Position numbers and translations under genes: made by a program | The notes under the pieces: model-generated | What the model was told of the DNA's origin: nothing | The model's input: only the letters and a program-made list of their open reading frames with translations | Database searches by the model: none | NCBI GenBank assembly: GCA_964437185.1 | Contig: CAYTFU010000005.1 | Location: 2,528 to 66,527, forward strand | Direction of reading: 5' to 3' | DNA length: 64,000 nt | Origin: an uncultured Candidatus Saccharibacteria bacterium | GTDB lineage: Bacteria; Patescibacteriota; Minisyncoccia; Phycocordibacterales; UBA2100 | Shown here: positions 2,832 to 25,581 of the stretch, piece after piece | Layout: each line of letters begins with the position of its first letter | How positions within the stretch are numbered: the stretch's first letter is position 1

Positions 2832-4100
2832 ATGAATGACTACGCACACATTCAAAAGCAAGATCCGGATGTTTTTAAAGTATTAGAGGGCGAAGAAACG
2901 CGCGAGGCCGAGGGGCTCGAGCTCATTCCGTCGGAAAATTACGTCTCAAAAGCCGTGCGCGAGGCCAACGGCTCGTGCTTTACCAACAAATATTCCGAAG
3001 GCTACCCGGGCAAGCGATACTACGGCGGCCAGACCTACACCGACGAGGTAGAGACAATTGCGATTGAGCGCGCGAAGAAGCTCTTCAACTGTCAATTCGC
3101 AAACGTGCAAACGCACGCAGGCGCGCCTGCGAACGTCGCAATGTACTTTGCTCTCCTTCAGCCAGGCGACACTGTGCTCGGCATGGATCTCTCGCACGGC
3201 GGCCACCTTACGCACGGACACCCTGTCACGTACCTAACGAAGATTTTCAACTTCGTCCGCTACAAGATGAAGGATCCCAACACGGGAGAAATTGATTACG
3301 ATGAGATGCGCAAAGTCGCTCTCGAACACAAGCCCAAAATCGTCCTCGCAGGTTTTTCCGCATACCCACGCGAGCTCAACTACGCGAAGTTTGTCGAGAT
3401 TGCCCGCGAAGTCGGTGCATACGCAATCATGGACGTCGCCCACATCGCAGGCCTTATCGCTGGCAAGGCGGTGAAAAGCCCGTTTGACTTTGGCTTCGAC
3501 GTGATGACATCGACTACGCACAAAACCCTTCGCGGCCCACGCGGCGGCCTCATCCTCACGCGCGAGAATGAAGAAATCGCGAAGAAAATCGACAAATCCG
3601 TCTTTCCCGGCCTCCAAGGCGGCCCCATCATGAACACCGTCGCAGCCAAAGCTGTGTGCTTCGGCGAAGCGCTCCTGCCATCGTTCCAGACCTACGCATC
3701 GCAAATCCTTAAAAACGCTAAGGCTATGGAAGAAGTCTTTCGCTCCAATAACATCCGCATGCTCACTGGCGGCACGAGCAACCACCTTATCCTCGCCGAC
3801 GTCTTCGGCAGCCTCGGTATGCCCGGCCAAGAAGCCGAGACGCTGCTCGACAAAGCGGGCATCACGCTCAACAAAAACTCGATTGCAGACGACACGCGCA
3901 AACCGATGGATCCTTCCGGCATCCGCTTCGGCACGCCCGCAATCACGACACGCGGATTCAAGGAAGCGGAGTGCAAACGCGTGGCTGAATTGATGGTGGA
4001 CGTCATGAAAAATAAAGACGACGCAAAAAAGCAGTCAGAAATCCGCGAAGAAATCCGCACCCTCTGCCTCAAATTTCCCATCCCCGAGTCGTTTGTGTAA
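2832..4100 (+). CDS. glyA: serine hydroxymethyltransferase
   Basis: 422 aa, SHMT blocks (PSENYVS, YSEGYPGKRYYGG, TTHKTLRGPRGG). Confidence 0.95.
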   Translation: MNDYAHIQKQDPDVFKVLEGEETREAEGLELIPSENYVSKAVREANGSCFTNKYSEGYPGKRYYGGQTYTDEVETIAIERAKKLFNCQFANVQTHAGAPANVAMYFALLQPGDTVLGMDLSHGGHLTHGHPVTYLTKIFNFVRYKMKDPNTGEIDYDEMRKVALEHKPKIVLAGFSAYPRELNYAKFVEIAREVGAYAIMDVAHIAGLIAGKAVKSPFDFGFDVMTSTTHKTLRGPRGGLILTRENEEIAKKIDKSVFPGLQGGPIMNTVAAKAVCFGEALLPSFQTYASQILKNAKAMEEVFRSNNIRMLTGGTSNHLILADVFGSLGMPGQEAETLLDKAGITLNKNSIADDTRKPMDPSGIRFGTPAITTRGFKEAECKRVAELMVDVMKNKDDAKKQSEIREEIRTLCLKFPIPESFV

Positions 4101-4223
4101 AGACGGATGAGGTGACCCTCTCTCGTGTCCGCGACTTGAGAAAAAAGTGTTTGCCAACAGTCGCGCTTAAGGCACTTTCTCATCTATTCGTTTCTGGCAG
4201 CTCTCCGGCGATCTAACGACCTA

Positions 4224-4321
4224 TTGTTTATCTCTGACGGCCGTCAAAGATAAACAATACTTCTCCGCAAGGAGATGAGAGGGCTTTTTAAAAATAACGA
4301 TTTCGTAAATCGTTATTTTTT
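4224..4321. terminator. two adjacent palindromes (17-bp arms 4224..4257; 14-bp arms 4291..4319 with flanking A/T tracts), bidirectional terminator candidate
   Basis: ttgtttatctctgacgg/ccgtcaaagataaacaa and aaaaataacgattt/aaatcgttattttt inverted repeats between convergent genes. Confidence 0.45.
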
Positions 4322-4466
4322 ATGAAAACCTCACACTCCTTTGTCTCTTTTGAATTCACCATTCGACTTCGCTCATGGTAAACCTGAATGATGCGCTCAA
4401 AAGAGTGGGGCATTTTTACGTGTTGCCCCAAGTCCACGGCGGGTTTCGGACCCGCAAAGATCAACC

Positions 4467-4955
4467 CTAGGACGCAGCGCGTGCCGCCGCGGCCCTTAAG
4501 GCCTCGGCGATCGCCGGTCCGCGGGCGTTTATTCGGTTTATCCAATCAACGCCCGCGATTGCGCCGTGGATCGCGGAATAGCCCTCCCAGCCATCGGCAA
4601 GCCGATGGACTGGCGCAGGTTTGTCGAGGAATTTGGCCGCCCTGTCCACGGCCTCCCGGAACTCCGGGAGGTACTCGAGGGCATTTTGCCCCCTCTTGGG
4701 CAGGGAGTCGTCATACTCCCCAAGGTCGACGAGGTCGACCCTCCGAATCGAGAGAGCGGGGTCGTCGGGCACAAAGACCCAACTTCCCCGAAGATACGAG
4801 CGATTTTGCTCGTCGTTAAATTTTTTCGCGCCCGAAATTTCAATCGCCCAGCCAGCTGGCCTGGGCGGGAGTGTTCCGCAGGCGTAGGTCGGCCAAACCT
4901 TGGCCGGCACTCTCGCGATCAAAAGAAATTTTCCCATGTCGTACATGTCAGTCAT
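4467..4955 (-). CDS. hypothetical protein in GC-rich island
   Basis: ORF 4467..4985, start placed at MTDMYDMG; region 4400..5090 visibly GC-richer than flanks; no recognisable motif. Confidence 0.4.
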   Translation of the reverse strand: MTDMYDMGKFLLIARVPAKVWPTYACGTLPPRPAGWAIEISGAKKFNDEQNRSYLRGSWVFVPDDPALSIRRVDLVDLGEYDDSLPKRGQNALEYLPEFREAVDRAAKFLDKPAPVHRLADGWEGYSAIHGAIAGVDWINRINARGPAIAEALRAAAARAAS

Positions 4956-5335
4956 TTCTCTGCCCTCCTTAAGGGCGTCTCGCACAATCCGTGTGCGAAT
5001 TCGGTTGGCCAGTGCTGTGCGCTGGCCGATGAACGTATCCCAGCAAGACCACCTTGATGGGCAATGAGCCCGCCCGAAGGCGGCAATTTAAGGATGCATT
5101 ACCATGCGATCCCTCTTTCCTGCACTAGGCGCACAGCCTACTGCGGGAGAAGAGGAATAACAGCGTGTACCTGAAGTACGCATGATTCCAGTTCTACCTA
5201 TTTATCTGTCAGAGAGCGCATCGGCGAGGCAATTTGGGCACAATGCCGAATGGCTTGTAAGTTTAACATGCTAACATGTGTTTGTCAAGTGAAATATGGC
5301 GAATTGTGGACATTTTTGGGGGTATAATCCTCCAA

Positions 5336-5956
5336 ATGCCTGAAATATCACTTACCGTCCTCGTCCAATTCTTCGGCTACCCCGGCCTCTTCACCGCAGT
5401 ATTTCTGGAATCGGGCCTCCCGATCGGTTTTTTCCTTCCCGGCGCCTCGATGCTTTTTACGGCCGGACTTCTCGCATCGCAGGGATTTTTCAATATTTGG
5501 ATTCTCATTCCCCTCCTCACGCTCGGCGCGATTTTGGGAGACAACGCGGGCTACTGGCTTGGAGCAAAGCTCGGCGTGCGACTTTTCCTTCGTCCTGATT
5601 CTCGATTTTTTCATCACGCGCATTTGGCGCGCGCGAAGGAATTTTACGAGAAGCACGGCATGCTCGCGATAGTGCTTGCGCGCTTTGTGCCTATCGTGCG
5701 CACCTTTACTCCGATTGTCGCGGGCATTGTGCGAATGAATTACCGCACTTTCATCATGTACAACATCGTGGGCGCGCTCTCGTGGGCTTCGGGCGTTACG
5801 TACATTGGGTACCTGCTCGGCGAAAAGATTCCCGGCGTAGAAAAATATCTCTCCCCCATTCTTCTCGGCATCATCGTGCTCACCTGCATCCCGCTCGGTG
5901 TGCAATTGTGGAAAAATTGGAAATCTCCCACACCGCCCACTACACCACTTGCCTAA
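5336..5956 (+). CDS. DedA / SNARE-associated (TVP38) family membrane protein
   Basis: VFLESGLPIGFFLPG DedA signature, multiple TM segments; start placed at MPEISLTV. Confidence 0.75.
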   Translation: MPEISLTVLVQFFGYPGLFTAVFLESGLPIGFFLPGASMLFTAGLLASQGFFNIWILIPLLTLGAILGDNAGYWLGAKLGVRLFLRPDSRFFHHAHLARAKEFYEKHGMLAIVLARFVPIVRTFTPIVAGIVRMNYRTFIMYNIVGALSWASGVTYIGYLLGEKIPGVEKYLSPILLGIIVLTCIPLGVQLWKNWKSPTPPTTPLA

Positions 5957-13180: not shown

Positions 13181-13201
13181 GTATGTGCCGGAGGAGAGAC
13201 T
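13181..13201. repeat. 21-bp direct duplicate of the 3' end of tRNA-Leu(CAA)
   Basis: atgtgccggaggagagactcg also at 13225..13245 (tRNA 3' acceptor/T-arm), copies 44 bp apart. Confidence 0.6.
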
Positions 13202-13227
13202 CGGTCACGAATCCTGTATTTGTTGTG

Positions 13228-13308
13228 TGCCGGAGGAGAGACTCGAACTCTCATGGGTTGCCCCACACGATTTTGAGTCGTGCGCGTATACCATTTCGCC
13301 ACTCCGGC
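13228..13308 (-). tRNA. tRNA-Leu(CAA)
   Basis: manual cloverleaf: acceptor GCCGGAG/CTCCGGC, anticodon loop CTCAAAA, long variable arm, T-loop TTCGAGT; 81 nt, CCA not encoded. Confidence 0.85.
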
Positions 13309-21743: not shown

Positions 21744-23249
21744 ATGAAAAACACAGCCACACACACGATCGAGCGACCTCCCATTGTGGCGGTTTTGGGG
21801 CACGTCGACCACGGTAAATCAACGCTACTCGATTTTATCCGCAAGTCCAACACCGTCGCCAAAGAATCTGGCGGCATCACGCAACACGTGGCGGCGTACG
21901 AAGTTGTGCGAGAGAAGGGCGGTACAGAGAAGCGCATTACATTCATCGACACACCCGGACACGCTGCGTTTGGCGCCATCCGCGAGCGAGGCGCGACTGC
22001 CGCCGATATCGCCATTCTCGTCGTCGCTGCCGACGACGGGGTAAAGGCGCAAACGCTTGAAGCACTTCAGAGCATTCGCGATGCCAAGACGCCATTCATT
22101 GTCGCGATCAACAAAATTGACAAACCCAACGCTGATCGAGAGAAAACGATTCGCACGCTTCTCGATCAGGATGTGTTCCTCGAAAAATATGGAGGCGACG
22201 TGCCGTGGGCTGCGATATCTGCAAAAACTGGCGAGGGCGTGGAGGAGCTTCTCGATTTAATTTTGCTCGTCGCAGAAATCGAGACGTTTACGGGAGATGA
22301 ATCAGCACGCGCGAAGGGTTACGTAATTGAAGCGCACCGAGACCAGAAACGCGGGCTCGCCGCAACACTCATCATTACCGACGGAGTGCTCCGCAGCGGC
22401 ATGGCGGTACTCGCGGGCTCCGCGCTCGCGCCCGTCCGCCTCATGGAAAACCATGCGGGCAAGGCTATTTCAGAGGCGAGTTTCTCAAGCCCGGTGCAGT
22501 TAATCGGGTTTGACGCCTTGCCCGAGGTGGGCGCAGAGTTTCACTCATTCAATAATAAGAAAGAGGCCGAGCTCGCGCGACCTGCTCCGCGCGCGGCTGC
22601 GCAGCGTGCGACACTTCCCCCATCCGAGGGCGAAACGGGCCCCTTCCTGCTGCCCGCCATTATTCGCGCTGATGCATCTGGATCTCTCGAAGCGATTGCA
22701 CACGAGGTTGCAAAAGTTGGCGATGAGTACGCGCGTATTTCGATCGTTCAGTCCGGCATTGGCGCGATATCGGAAAACGACGTAAAGGCTGCGATCGCGA
22801 GCGACACTCCTGCGGTCGTTGTCGGCTTCCACGTCTCAACAGACCCAATCGCCTCCGCACTTGCGCTCCAGCACGGCATTCAAATCTCTACTTTTAATAT
22901 TATCTATAAGCTTACTGAGTACCTGGAAGAACGCCTTGCCGCGCAGGCACCGAAAAGAGCGGTCGAGGATGTCACAGGCCGCGCGCGCGTACTCAAATAC
23001 TTTTCAAGCCGAAAGGACGAGCACGTCCTCGGAGGTAAGGTACTTGACGGTTATCTCGCAAAAGGTGGATCGGTCCGCGTCGTGCGGCGCGATACCACGG
23101 TCGGCGTGGGCAAAATTCGGAACATCCAGTCCAATAAAGAAGACGTGAGCCGAATCGAGGTCGACCGAGAGTTTGGCGCGCAGATCGTCGCGGATTTTGA
23201 AATCATGCAAGGTGACGTACTCCAGGGTTTTACGACATCAATGAAATAG
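21744..23249 (+). CDS. infB: translation initiation factor IF-2 (short form lacking N-terminal extension)
   Basis: VLGHVDHGKSTLLD G1, DTPGH G3, NKIDK G4, IF-2 C-terminal beta-barrels. Confidence 0.9.
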   Translation: MKNTATHTIERPPIVAVLGHVDHGKSTLLDFIRKSNTVAKESGGITQHVAAYEVVREKGGTEKRITFIDTPGHAAFGAIRERGATAADIAILVVAADDGVKAQTLEALQSIRDAKTPFIVAINKIDKPNADREKTIRTLLDQDVFLEKYGGDVPWAAISAKTGEGVEELLDLILLVAEIETFTGDESARAKGYVIEAHRDQKRGLAATLIITDGVLRSGMAVLAGSALAPVRLMENHAGKAISEASFSSPVQLIGFDALPEVGAEFHSFNNKKEAELARPAPRAAAQRATLPPSEGETGPFLLPAIIRADASGSLEAIAHEVAKVGDEYARISIVQSGIGAISENDVKAAIASDTPAVVVGFHVSTDPIASALALQHGIQISTFNIIYKLTEYLEERLAAQAPKRAVEDVTGRARVLKYFSSRKDEHVLGGKVLDGYLAKGGSVRVVRRDTTVGVGKIRNIQSNKEDVSRIEVDREFGAQIVADFEIMQGDVLQGFTTSMK

Positions 23250-23585: not shown

Positions 23586-23657
23586 AGGCCTGGGCGAGAC
23601 TCGAACTCGCGCATAAGAGTTTTGCAGACTCCCGTGTTACCCCTTCACCACCAGGCC
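23586..23657 (-). tRNA. tRNA-Cys(GCA)
   Basis: manual cloverleaf: acceptor GGCCTGG/CCAGGCC, anticodon stem GGAGT/ACTCT, loop CTGCAAA, T-loop TTCGAGT. Confidence 0.85.
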
Positions 23658-23707
23658 AACAATAAACTGACGCGTGTACTGTAACATACAAAAATTATGG
23701 GATACAG

Positions 23708-24253
23708 ATGTGCACAGCTTACATCGTGCGTATACCCTTCTGTTACAATCTATTAATGCGAAAGCGAAGCTGGTCTCTGCAACAGCTAAAGAAGGCCGCA
23801 GAACAGTCGCATAGTATTCGTCAGGTTCTTATCAATTTGAAGCTTGTGCCGGCGGGAGGAAACTACGTACAAATAAAGCGAGAGCTAGAGATTCAAGAAA
23901 TCGATACGCTGCATTTTCGGGGAAAAACCTGGAATCGCGGACTCAAAACACCTAGACCACCTCTCATAGCTACTGCTGACATACTAGTGAAAAAAAGCGG
24001 CTACCAGAGTTTTAAATTAAAGAAGCGTCTCTTTGCCGAGGGTTTGAAAAAAGCCCAATGCGAAATCTGCGGTTGGGCGGAACGATCAATCGACGGTCGT
24101 CTTCCCCTTGAACTCGATCACGTAAACGGCGATCGCTACGACAATCGAATCGAAAACTTACGAATACTTTGTCCCAACTGCCATAGCCTTCAACCCACAC
24201 ATCGTGGTAGAAATAAGGGACGTCGGGGTGGCGTAATTGGTAGCCGCATTTGA
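23708..24253 (+). CDS. HNH endonuclease
   Basis: CEICGW...LELDHVNGDRYDNRIENLRILCPNCH HNH/zinc motif; alternative start ATG 23756; lower GC than surroundings; 3' end overlaps tRNA-Leu by about 30 nt. Confidence 0.7.
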   Translation: MCTAYIVRIPFCYNLLMRKRSWSLQQLKKAAEQSHSIRQVLINLKLVPAGGNYVQIKRELEIQEIDTLHFRGKTWNRGLKTPRPPLIATADILVKKSGYQSFKLKKRLFAEGLKKAQCEICGWAERSIDGRLPLELDHVNGDRYDNRIENLRILCPNCHSLQPTHRGRNKGRRGGVIGSRI

Positions 24254-24305
24254 CTTAAGATCAAATGCTCGAAAGAGCGTGTGGGTTCGAGTCCCACCCC
24301 CGGCA
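24222..24305 (+). tRNA. tRNA-Leu(TAA)
   Basis: manual cloverleaf: acceptor GTCGGGG/CCCCGGC (one GU), anticodon stem TTTGA/TCAAA, loop CTTAAGA, long variable arm, T-loop TTCGAGT; 84 nt. Confidence 0.85.
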
Positions 24306-24307
24306 CA

Positions 24308-24485
24308 GACTGAGCGGAGCGAGTGCTGTGCTGGGGAGCACAGCGCCTGCGCGCTGTGCGTGTGGGACTCGAAAGGCGCAGGCATGTCGCACGAGTACGT
24401 GCGACGCCGAGCCGGGGTCGCGGAAATTCAATCGTGTCGACGATTGAATTATTCGTGACCGAGTTTACCCCCCACCCCCGGCACA
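24308..24485. repeat. hairpin-rich GC-rich insert ending in a 15-bp duplicate (cccacccccggcaca, 24471..24485) of the tRNA-Leu(TAA) 3' end
   Basis: perfect hairpins gtcgcacg/cgtgcgac and aattcaatcg/cgattgaatt; duplicate of 24293..24307. Confidence 0.6.
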
Positions 24486-24598
24486 TTTTTGTGTTTCAAA
24501 ACTTGAGAATTTGTGTACAATCTCACTACCGCCTATATATTCATATAGACGGGTCAGTCGGAGAACATGAAAGCTCGCTTTCATGTTTCCCCTCCTTA

Positions 24599-24671
24599 CC
24601 GCCTATAGCTCAGCTGGTAGAGCAACTGCCTCTTAAGCAGTGGGTCCCAGGTTCGATCCCTGGTGGGCGGA
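24599..24671 (+). tRNA. tRNA-Lys(CTT)
   Basis: D-arm TAGCTCAGCTGGTAGAGC, anticodon loop CTCTTAA, T-loop TTCGATC, acceptor CCGCCTA/TGGGCGG; the 5' boundary (C1) is uncertain by 1-2 nt. Confidence 0.75.
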
Positions 24672-24702
24672 AAAATGTTTTGAGTGTTAGGATACCGGGG
24701 AA

Positions 24703-24784
24703 GGGCAGATGGCGAAATTGGTAGACGCACCAGCCTTAGGAGCTGGCCCCGCAAGGGATGGGAGTTCGAGTCTCCCTCTGCCCA
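24703..24784 (+). tRNA. tRNA-Leu(TAG)
   Basis: acceptor GGGCAGA/TCTGCCC, anticodon stem CCAGC/GCTGG, loop CTTAGGA, long variable arm, T-loop TTCGAGT; 82 nt. Confidence 0.85.
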
Positions 24785-24861
24785 CGAGTGAAGCGAGTGG
24801 AGACAAGTCCCTGCGAAGCAGAGGGGCTCTGCCCACAGGCAAAAGCGCGAAGAATTCGAAT

Positions 24862-25146
24862 CTATCGAACGATGTTTTTTTCAACGCTCTTGTTACCCGA
24901 GCCAAGATTAAACGTGCTGTCGATGATTCGAATAATGCCCCACGAGGAAACCATGATCGTCATGCCGATGACGCCCCAGAGCATATGCTCCTTACCTTTT
25001 TCATCCACCTTGCCCGTGCGCATTCCCCACATCATCTCTACCAGTCCGTACATGAAGACGAGCAGACCAATACCGAACAGGAGCGCAAGCGTGGGATTGA
25101 TGATGAGTGTCGTGATGCGACCCATTATTTCTCCAATTGTGTTCAT
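24862..25146 (-). CDS. pilin-like small membrane protein (VirB2/TrbC-like), paralog 1
   Basis: 94 aa, two hydrophobic helices separated by a charged loop (RTGKVDEKGKEH). Confidence 0.5.
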   Translation of the reverse strand: MNTIGEIMGRITTLIINPTLALLFGIGLLVFMYGLVEMMWGMRTGKVDEKGKEHMLWGVIGMTIMVSSWGIIRIIDSTFNLGSGNKSVEKNIVR

Positions 25147-25206
25147 ACTAAATTCACCTCGTAAAGAGTTACCGATCCCAAGAGCGAACGATCACCGATG
25201 TAAAAA

Positions 25207-25581
25207 CTAAAAGTTGGTCAACTGAATACCCTGCGGCACCTGTGCTGCCCCACCGCCAACAGAGAAGGTCGTCTGAAGCAAGCGTACGAGACCCCAAACC
25301 GAAACCATAACGAAGATTGTGACGACGCCGTAAAACATCACCTTGAGACCCTCTGATTTTCCCTCTGCGCCACCCTGAAAGAGATATTTTACTAAGCCCC
25401 AGAAGAAAACCACTACCGCGAGCGTTACGGCGACCCCGATGAGCCCATTTAGAAATCTGCTGATGAGCTGCAACACGCCAAACAGTCCTCCAACGGTCTG
25501 GGTGGGCGTTTGGGCCATGGTAATGAGCGGCAGTGCAGCCACAGAAAGCGCGGGGATCAGAGTGTTTATAAATTTACGCAT
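25207..25581 (-). CDS. pilin-like small membrane protein (VirB2/TrbC-like), paralog 2
   Basis: signal peptide ending ITMAQTPTQT, two TM helices with charged loop GGAEGKSEGLK. Confidence 0.55.
   Translation of the reverse strand: MRKFINTLIPALSVAALPLITMAQTPTQTVGGLFGVLQLISRFLNGLIGVAVTLAVVVFFWGLVKYLFQGGAEGKSEGLKVMFYGVVTIFVMVSVWGLVRLLQTTFSVGGGAAQVPQGIQLTNF

Follow-up and report, generated by a model that had tools for sequence, protein, structure and literature searches.

The candidate phyla radiation (CPR), or Patescibacteria, makes up a large share of bacterial diversity, and to our knowledge almost nothing is known of its RNA biology. Work by Williams in 2002 is said to have recognised, among att sites in tRNA genes, a class with a T-loop sublocation; folded single-strand recombination sites, namely the integron attC and the CTX-phi attP(+), were reportedly described by Bouvier and by Val and their colleagues in 2005; and the Roth laboratory is said to have treated tandem inversion duplications and quasi-palindrome template switching. 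We know of no described precedent for an element that carries both an antisense and a sense copy of the 3′ end of its host tRNA. The nearest concept in the literature searched is that of the theta ribozymes, minimal ribozymes resembling that of hepatitis delta virus (HDV-like), which are very numerous, lie directly downstream of phage tRNA genes and have a proposed role in tRNA 3′-end maturation or regulation (PMC10879173). Here we analyse a stretch of 64,000 nt from an uncultured Candidatus Saccharibacteria bacterium (assembly GCA_964437185.1, contig CAYTFU010000005.1, positions 2,528 to 66,527; hereafter the window), in which a short non-coding insert follows the gene for tRNA-Leu(UAA). The insert holds an antisense and then a sense copy of the tRNA 3′ end around a conserved three-way junction, and it belongs to a large CPR-specific family that appears to be undescribed; no account of it was found in the literature searched. 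The antisense arm and the family context are new facts.

The element shares single traits with each of these systems. As at tRNA att sites, a direct repeat runs from the T-loop to a few nucleotides past the gene, with the functional tRNA on the left and a displaced, decaying 3′ fragment on the right; unlike in tRNA islands, the cargo is a non-coding, covarying segment of ~100-160 nt with an internal antisense copy, at least 16 tRNAs are matched, and no integrase was found among the neighbouring families listed. As in attC and attP(+), inverted arms and a structured spacer fold strand-specifically into a target-like duplex, and cassette-like tandem arrays occur; unlike there, no IntI or XerCD was found among the neighbour families listed, the T-loop reads GTTCGAR and not GTTRRRY, the target is a tRNA 3′ end, and the spacer is strongly conserved in sequence, which attC spacers are not. 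Theta ribozymes are likewise small structured RNA-type elements found in many copies downstream of tRNA genes, but they form a nested double pseudoknot, occur in phages and abut the tRNA, whereas the element is a three-way junction in CPR genomes that does not abut the tRNA and has no Rfam HDV match. The layout of tandem inversion duplications, in which a short segment (here the tRNA 3′ end with or without trailer and terminator) stands in direct, inverted and again direct orientation with junctions at hairpins, is also reproduced, but here the inner junction always holds a specific conserved core; template switching could account for the origin of the arms, not for the nature of the element.

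The insert behind tRNA-Leu(UAA)

The initial annotation of the window had drawn attention to a 15-mer, CCCACCCCCGGCACA, that ends tRNA-Leu(UAA) and recurs downstream. Sequence comparison bore this out exactly: the 15-mer lies at 24293-24307 and again at 24471-24485, the spacing is 163 nt, and the first copy consists of the T-stem 3′ strand, the acceptor 3′ strand, the discriminator and the CA of the tRNA. The chance of a 15-mer recurring within 200 nt is ~2e-7 per position (E 0.035 across the window), and this pair is the only match of its kind in the window. The direct repeat behind the proposed att-like geometry is therefore real, with an identity block from the T-loop to a few nucleotides past the tRNA end, and the T-tract recorded after the second copy is present. 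The segment in between, described as a small structured non-coding cargo, indeed holds no plausible open reading frame (ORF) within the 163 nt, folds more stably than shuffled sequences (z = -6.5 for 24306-24495; z = -8.5 with the tRNA included) and covaries across the family.

The defining feature of the element, its antisense arm, was absent from that annotation. We call the tRNA 3′ end S1, the sense duplicate S2 and the antisense copy A, which consists of an acceptor part (A_acc) and a T-arm part (A_T) separated by a hairpin (hp); T1 denotes a terminator-like hairpin after the tRNA, and L-numbers (L005, L142 and so on) denote comparison loci from genomes and metagenomes. Both antisense parts had gone unseen, as had the true start of the duplicate at 24460 (Table 1). 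A_acc departs from the exact reverse complement GTGCCGGGG by a single C-to-T change that retains a G·U pair, and its partners in predicted folds are 24477-24485 or 24298-24306. The placement of hp is identical in L137, L141, L156 and L162. Because a 6-nt insertion interrupts S2, the window copy is partly decayed. Judged by its sequence, the T-tract after S2 may be a terminator for read-through transcripts; a simple terminator scan missed it because the loop is far too long.

Of the four stem-loops previously listed as perfect, one, GTGCTGTGC/GCACAGCGC, has one mismatch as written. Two others belong to the family fold: GTCGCACG/CGTGCGAC (24386-24405) is helix P2b, and AATTCAATCG/CGATTGAATT (24425-24450) is the distal portion of helix P3. 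The last, GCCTGCGC/GCGCAGGC (24345-24383), is perfect but lies outside the family consensus helices. A perfect 8-nt pairing, GCTGTGCT/AGCACAGC at 24325-24344, competes with the family-conserved hairpin GCACAGCGC-CTGC-GCGCTGTGC at 24338-24359.

Table 1. Parts of the insert behind tRNA-Leu(UAA) and remnants behind the other tRNA-Leu genes, in window coordinates.
Feature	Position	Strand	Description
tRNA-Leu(UAA)	24222..24306	+	ARAGORN and Rfam tRNA; 3′ part from T-loop C56 (24288) to 24307 is arm S1, master of both arms
Trailer motif GAGCGGAGCGAGTG	24312..24325	+	Recurs at 24786-24799 after tRNA-Leu(UAG); similar form after tRNA or duplicate in several relatives
A_acc GTGCTGGGG	24328..24336	+	Antisense of acceptor 3′ strand, discriminator and 1 further nt; from sequence and folds
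hp, GCACAGCGC-CUGC-GCGCUGUGC	24337..24359	+	Conserved hairpin; splits the antisense arm exactly at the acceptor/T-stem junction
A_T GTGGGACTCGAA	24362..24373	+	12-nt perfect reverse complement of tRNA positions 54-65 (24286-24297)
Three-way-junction core	24374..24459	+	R1 match and covariation
Core, junction nt	24374	+	
Core, P2	24375-24413	+	With GCAG/CGA internal loop
Core, GGG	24414-24416	+	
Core, P3	24417-24459	+	GUCGC to GUGAC, invariant G·U
S2, sense duplicate	24460..24485	+	CGAGT 24460-24464 (from T-loop C56), insertion TTACCC 24465-24470, 15-mer 24471-24485
T-tract TTTTT	24486..24490	+	After long GC-rich outer helix
Remnant of second element behind tRNA-Leu(CAA)	13184..13212	-	Last 9 nt of P3, ATTCGTGAC (identical to 24451-24459), and 20-nt duplicate CGAGTCTCTCCTCCGGCACA
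Possible remnant behind tRNA-Leu(UAG) (24703-24785)	24786..24836	+	GAGTGAAGCGAGTG; antisense GCAGAGGG 24818-24825; 10-nt duplicate CTCTGCCCAC 24827-24836; weak case

A covarying family downstream of CPR tRNA genes

A scan of metagenomes for the core pattern returned at least 120 stretches, of which ~105 are real; together with the genome loci, these gave 107 distinct cores of the window's type (type A). A covariance model, R1, with 102 model positions, was built from 36 copies with the window copy left out of the seed. Its only match in the window, at 24365-24466, covers model positions 1-102 of 102 (92.9 bits, E 7e-20) and starts 59 nt after tRNA-Leu(UAA). The window copy thereby shows every feature by which we recognise a tRNA tail: an R1 match, a tRNA at most 160 nt upstream, S2 after GUGAC, and A split by a hairpin. 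Among 83 loci chosen by homology of the translation factor IF-2 alone, R1 found 18 matches, all in CPR genomes, and 16 of the 18 lie at most 175 nt downstream of a co-oriented tRNA (~0.3 expected). Across the evaluable cores, 67 of 97 follow a co-oriented tRNA at a distance of at most 160 nt, with 16 isotypes represented; an exact duplicate of at least 10 nt of that tRNA's 3′ end is present in 44 of these 67 and begins at C56 in 24 of the 44. Distances from a co-oriented upstream tRNA gene run from 20 to 160 nt, over at least 16 tRNA specificities. Duplicates were also seen in 80 IF-2-anchored loci, where ~25 tRNAs (Cys, Leu, Tyr, Lys, Ser) have a 12-28-nt copy of their 3′ end 50-200 nt downstream, starting nearly always at T-loop C56 and often preceded by GTGAC. 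The duplicate varies in length, from 4 or 7 nt up to 31 nt.

The type-A core also occurs in 23S-5S rRNA spacers (L113 1063-1170; L122 10010-10085), where no tRNA adjoins it. In these spacer copies the closing helix cannot be traced to a flanking RNA gene, and it therefore appears to be part of the fold itself. Presence among orthologous loci is patchy: the same tRNA-Leu(UAA) 3′ end is filled in the window, L005 and L207 and empty in L048, L044, L010 and L011. Tandem units, each made of a tRNA-end copy, hairpin, antisense and core, follow tRNA-Arg and tRNA-Lys in L142 and L209; L142 has three units with a 134-nt period, and L209 (3664-4030) has about five partial 3′-end copies. Copies on the same contig are no more alike than others (identity 0.67 within contigs vs 0.65 between), and recent intragenomic bursts of type A, which we had considered, find no support in this comparison. 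At least four core types are known, of which type A is the commonest in Kaiserbacteria-like genomes. Other types with the same arm architecture were noted as B (L024, L033, L035, L038), C (L043) and D (L065, L070, tRNA-Cys of L014, L209), the last reading GGGAAAGGG.CGGGGAAAACGGGAGUUUUCCCCG..GGAG.

A scan of the window against Rfam 15 with cmscan yielded only tRNAs at the gathering score, and nothing credible at E <=10 in 24200-24900; results below threshold were only tRNAs and spurious miRNA-like hairpins. At E <=1, seven canonical copies matched no credible family, including hammerhead, HDV-like, twister, pistol, hatchet, YrlA and tmRNA. When 23600-25300 was compared with phage genomes by BLAST, the tRNAs alone matched, and a core-pattern scan of IMG/VR gave three matches, all in GC-rich protein-coding sequence, with no true copies. 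The checks suggested in the initial annotation (folding, Rfam, further copies, relatives) thus describe a structured region without Rfam match, with more than 100 other copies and with the same architecture in relatives; because copies are many and covariation is strong, the possibility it had raised of a solitary region lacking covariation does not apply. A highly conserved, covarying fold absent from Rfam stands behind a sizeable fraction of CPR tRNA genes and in rRNA operons.

The module is ~100-190 nt long and follows one plan: tRNA (S1), trailer, often a locus-specific T1, A_acc, hp, A_T, a junction of ~3 nt, P2, GGG, P3 and S2. In the family, A_acc reads antisense to the trailer, the discriminator and the 3′ strand of the acceptor, and A_T to the 3′ strand of the T stem and to the T-loop, so that the arms span 18-20 nt at the 3′ end of the tRNA, beginning at T-loop C56 and ending slightly beyond the discriminator. 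The hairpin hp is always at the 65/66 (acceptor/T-stem) junction and has a CUGC tetraloop in 23 of 77 family hairpins. P2 has a 3-bp base, a GGAG/CGA loop resembling tandem G·A pairs and a variable hairpin; P3 runs GUCGC…GUGAC, and S2 follows directly. Some copies, a minority found mostly after tRNAs for Lys, Arg and Ile, have a short S of 7-9 nt spanning the tRNA end and trailer (L044, L088, L139, L142). In several loci (L016, L024, L038; also L142), trailer and hairpin recur in diverged form after S2, which gives a direct-inverted-direct layout. A reads as the genuine reverse complement of S, and at G·U sites it tracks the 3′ strand, as at U2·G71 of the window tRNA and G3·U70 of tRNA-Ala in L137. 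An origin of A as a copy of the tRNA 5′ strand, from a degenerate duplicated tRNA, was rejected, as A follows the 3′ strand at G·U and extends into the trailer complement.

Covariation supports this fold in detail. In 107 trimmed cores, 90% of cells are paired vs 29-40% in slid controls, a share to be read with the knowledge that copies were collected with pairing filters on P2a (all 3 pairs) and P3 (at least 7 of 8 pairs), whereas P1 and P2b were never filtered. Changes on both sides were found at 15 of 20 pairs, and none of 500 shuffles reached the observed value. The middle pair of P2a is CG in 52 cores, GC in 32, AU in 14 and UA in 8; in unfiltered raw pattern matches, 102 of 121 middle pairs are canonical, again with four types. 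RNAalifold on 36 full sequences returned the same helices, with 24 of 33 pairs compensatory. One P3 pair is an invariant G·U (107 of 107) and the second position is split between GU (53) and GC (43), which together imply that the tRNA-sense strand is the one that folds. At type-A P2 and P3 tips we also noted a sub-motif, GAG-CGACGG-CGAG (variants e.g. GAGCGUCGGCGAG; L096, L129, L145), with a related GAGCGNAGCGAG in tRNA trailers; by its sequence it may be a tandem-GA or K-turn-like protein-binding module.

Interpretation of the element

We lean, tentatively, towards reading the element as a tRNA-linked, cis-acting structured RNA module on stable-RNA precursors that would serve as a switch or as a processing or decay signal. 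The module would most likely be transcribed from the promoter of the tRNA or rRNA, by read-through. With A complementary to S2 as well as to the genuine tRNA end S1, the transcript would have two mutually exclusive folds. In the A:S2 state, the core would be closed and the tRNA free; in the A:S1 state, the tRNA terminator hairpin would be extended into the tRNA, with the 3′ strands of the acceptor and T stems sequestered. The conserved junction is the predicted binding or catalytic site. For the window copy, the minimum free energy fold is A:S1 with the tRNA 5′ half paired with S2 (-150.4 kcal/mol), against -133.8 kcal/mol for the tRNA with A:S2; in nine cases in which S1 and S2 mismatch, A pairs better with S1 in eight and better with S2 in none. 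The arms would be re-templated on whichever tRNA stands upstream, probably by hairpin-directed template switching or gene conversion, which would also account for tandem arrays and duplicated trailers. Riboswitches and T-boxes offer a likeness in the covarying junction core closed by a P1 whose 5′ strand has an exclusive alternative partner; unlike them, the element lies 3′ of tRNA or 23S genes and not in a 5′ untranslated region, is multi-copy per genome and takes the tRNA's own 3′ end as partner. A bolder version, rather unlikely in our estimate, holds that the junction is a new functional RNA class (a ligand- or protein-sensing switch or a ribozyme) wired to tRNA and 23S 3′ ends through a strand invading the acceptor and T stems; if true, a module re-templated for each tRNA would let CPR bacteria regulate or quality-check the maturation of stable RNAs in cis. 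A mimic of the RNase P minihelix was also considered, but the inclusion of discriminator and trailer nucleotides in the paired helix weakens this idea.

Several points weigh against the RNA module. The tendency of A to track S1 is suggestive, as it rests on ~8 events vs 2 (P ~0.05), and neutral hairpin-templated conversion could give the same. Transcription would need read-through, because a terminator-like hairpin often stands between the tRNA and the module, and the pairing filters inflate the percent-paired values of P2a and P3. The G·T pairs and strand specificity would equally fit a folded single-stranded DNA intermediate. Remnants, decayed S2, tandem arrays and patchiness are more in keeping with a selfish or mobile element than with a regulator that the cell needs; whether RNA or DNA is the acting form, the patchiness among orthologous loci, like the remnants, speaks for an element that is selfish or dispensable. 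In the window genome, S2 is damaged and two more tRNA-Leu genes carry remnants, so that the module looks dispensable or decaying; for the window copy itself, decay is probable.

The main rival, which we judge less likely, is a non-autonomous DNA mini-element: a folded single-stranded DNA circle or cassette whose S:A stem mimics the tRNA 3′-end target and which a recombinase or HUH enzyme encoded elsewhere inserts to give S1-x-A-core-S2, the core being a variable terminal structure or protein-recognition site. The observed geometry is as predicted for integration of a folded circle within S, with the boundary in the T-loop beside GTT and a strand-specific fold that tolerates G·T, and the tandem arrays with S between units (L142, L209), the patchy presence among orthologous tRNA loci, the remnants and the decay of S2 with retention of S1 all fit as well. 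However, Pfam searches of 150 ORFs at most 3 kb from copies matched 136 families, and the 25 listed include no transposase, integrase or reverse transcriptase, the recurrent ones being housekeeping families such as PilM, RluA-type pseudouridine synthase and ParB; nor was a Rep protein seen among these families, or any of the four near the window copy. The absence of true matches in IMG/VR and the equal similarity of copies within and between contigs also count against it, as do the spacer copies in rRNA operons without a tRNA adjoining the core. Both arms perfectly match each of at least 16 tRNAs, so that a carried att site would need re-templating, and the conservation of tandem-GA loops and of purines in the junction is what RNA motifs typically show. 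Depending on the account, the design points to a new structured-RNA coupling to tRNA maturation or a new tRNA-templated spread of a tiny element.

A new self-cleaving or processing ribozyme for tRNA 3′-end maturation, analogous to theta ribozymes and with the arms as substrate-binding helices, is a quite improbable reading. It would suit a compact three-way junction with near-invariant purine-rich junction nucleotides and freely covarying stems, as well as copies that are numerous and patchy like those of small ribozymes, and small ribozymes adjoining tRNAs have a precedent (PMC10879173). No Rfam ribozyme family matched, even at E <=10, and the core lies 20-100 nt from the tRNA end without abutting it. 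By inspection, the core cannot be mapped onto the hammerhead, because a hammerhead requires a cleavage nucleotide other than G where J23 has GGG, and because GUGAC is paired; a type II hammerhead mapped by hand fails at the cleavage nucleotide and at CUGAUGA. The att interpretation offered in the initial annotation holds for the geometry alone, since no integrase, transposase or coding cargo was found at the window copy or among the neighbour families listed for other copies, and no larger island in the loci examined. A decayed integrase-type island or prophage, with the 15-mers as attL and attR and nearly all cargo deleted, is very improbable. Classical islands are recognised by a direct repeat of a tRNA 3′ end that runs from the T-loop to slightly beyond the gene, and in the relative L208 a large serine recombinase abuts tRNA-Leu(UAG); but the same ~100-nt covarying core stands between such repeats in more than 100 independent loci, and a deletion remnant is unlikely because random remnants would share no conserved fold. 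The antisense arm is left unexplained by an island, the loci examined hold no longer versions, and no tRNA-end duplicates more than 600 nt away were found in 80 loci. A chance repeat in an ordinary GC-rich terminator region, to which the T-tract behind the second copy might point, is scarcely credible and is refuted by the repeat odds, the R1 E-value and the recurrence of the architecture at other window tRNAs and in relatives. The L208 recombinase itself (3817-5406; Resolvase, Recombinase, Zn_ribbon_recom), which abuts and overlaps the tRNA, may mark a genuine integrated element at tRNA-Leu(UAG).

Miniature inverted-repeat transposable elements (MITEs), REPINs and Correia-type repeats are, like the element, small, non-coding, hairpin-forming, repeated, patchy and intergenic. 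Unlike them, it has arms copied from the neighbouring gene, no fixed-length target-site duplication and no within-genome homogeneity. The suggestion in the initial annotation of a miniature inverted-repeat element was not borne out: the arms are the neighbouring tRNA 3′ end, not element-specific terminal repeats, and instead of the many near-identical copies expected of a MITE, the window holds one full copy in 64 kb. For retrons and IS200/IS605 elements (TnpB omega-RNA, PATE), we found no reverse transcriptase or TnpA/TnpB beside the window copy or among the neighbour families listed.

Other tRNA loci and neighbouring genes

Two further tRNA-Leu genes of the window carry traces of the element (Table 1). 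The tRNA-Leu(CAA) gene (13308..13227, minus strand) has a 20-nt duplicate of its own 3′ end 22 nt downstream, and the case behind tRNA-Leu(UAG) is weak. An element or remnant is thus seen behind all three tRNA-Leu genes and none behind the Trp, Tyr, Cys and Lys tRNAs.

The gene content of the window is cellular and not viral (IF-2, RbfA, ClpB-like, GyrA, T4SS-pilin-like small proteins). We assign the window, which is identical to a metagenome contig in ENA, to a Candidatus Kaiserbacteria genome. IF-2 (21744-23249), which is 76% identical to that of Candidatus Kaiserbacteria metagenome-assembled genomes, has only 501 aa and presumably lacks the long N-terminal region typical of well-studied bacteria. 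The neighbours of the window copy are an HNH gene, tRNAs and pilin-like ORFs. The HNH endonuclease ORF (23708-24253), which overlaps the first 32 nt of tRNA-Leu(UAA), belongs to a family of which Parcubacteria-type genomes hold over 4000 homologues (E 1e-20 or better), and the order tRNA-Cys, HNH, tRNA-Leu is kept in several relatives with the element present or absent. A role of this gene as partner of the element was rejected: it is syntenic with or without the element, and 733 kb around 120 metagenome copies held one weak match. As it was not found near other copies, we treat it as unrelated.

A further arrangement was noted on the 5′ side of tRNA-Lys(CUU). In this region (24522-24607), 11 nt of leader and 5′ end, TACCGCCTATA, stand twice in sense orientation, at 24527-24537 and 24597-24607, with an antisense-like copy, TATAGACGG, at 24544-24552, followed by a hairpin at 24564-24587. 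The antisense piece could pair with either the duplicate or the genuine tRNA-Lys 5′ end. The arrangement overlaps a promoter-like TGTACA-16-TATATT, and a similar leader occurs in L208. On sequence grounds, it looks like a 5′-side analogue of the tRNA-tail logic.

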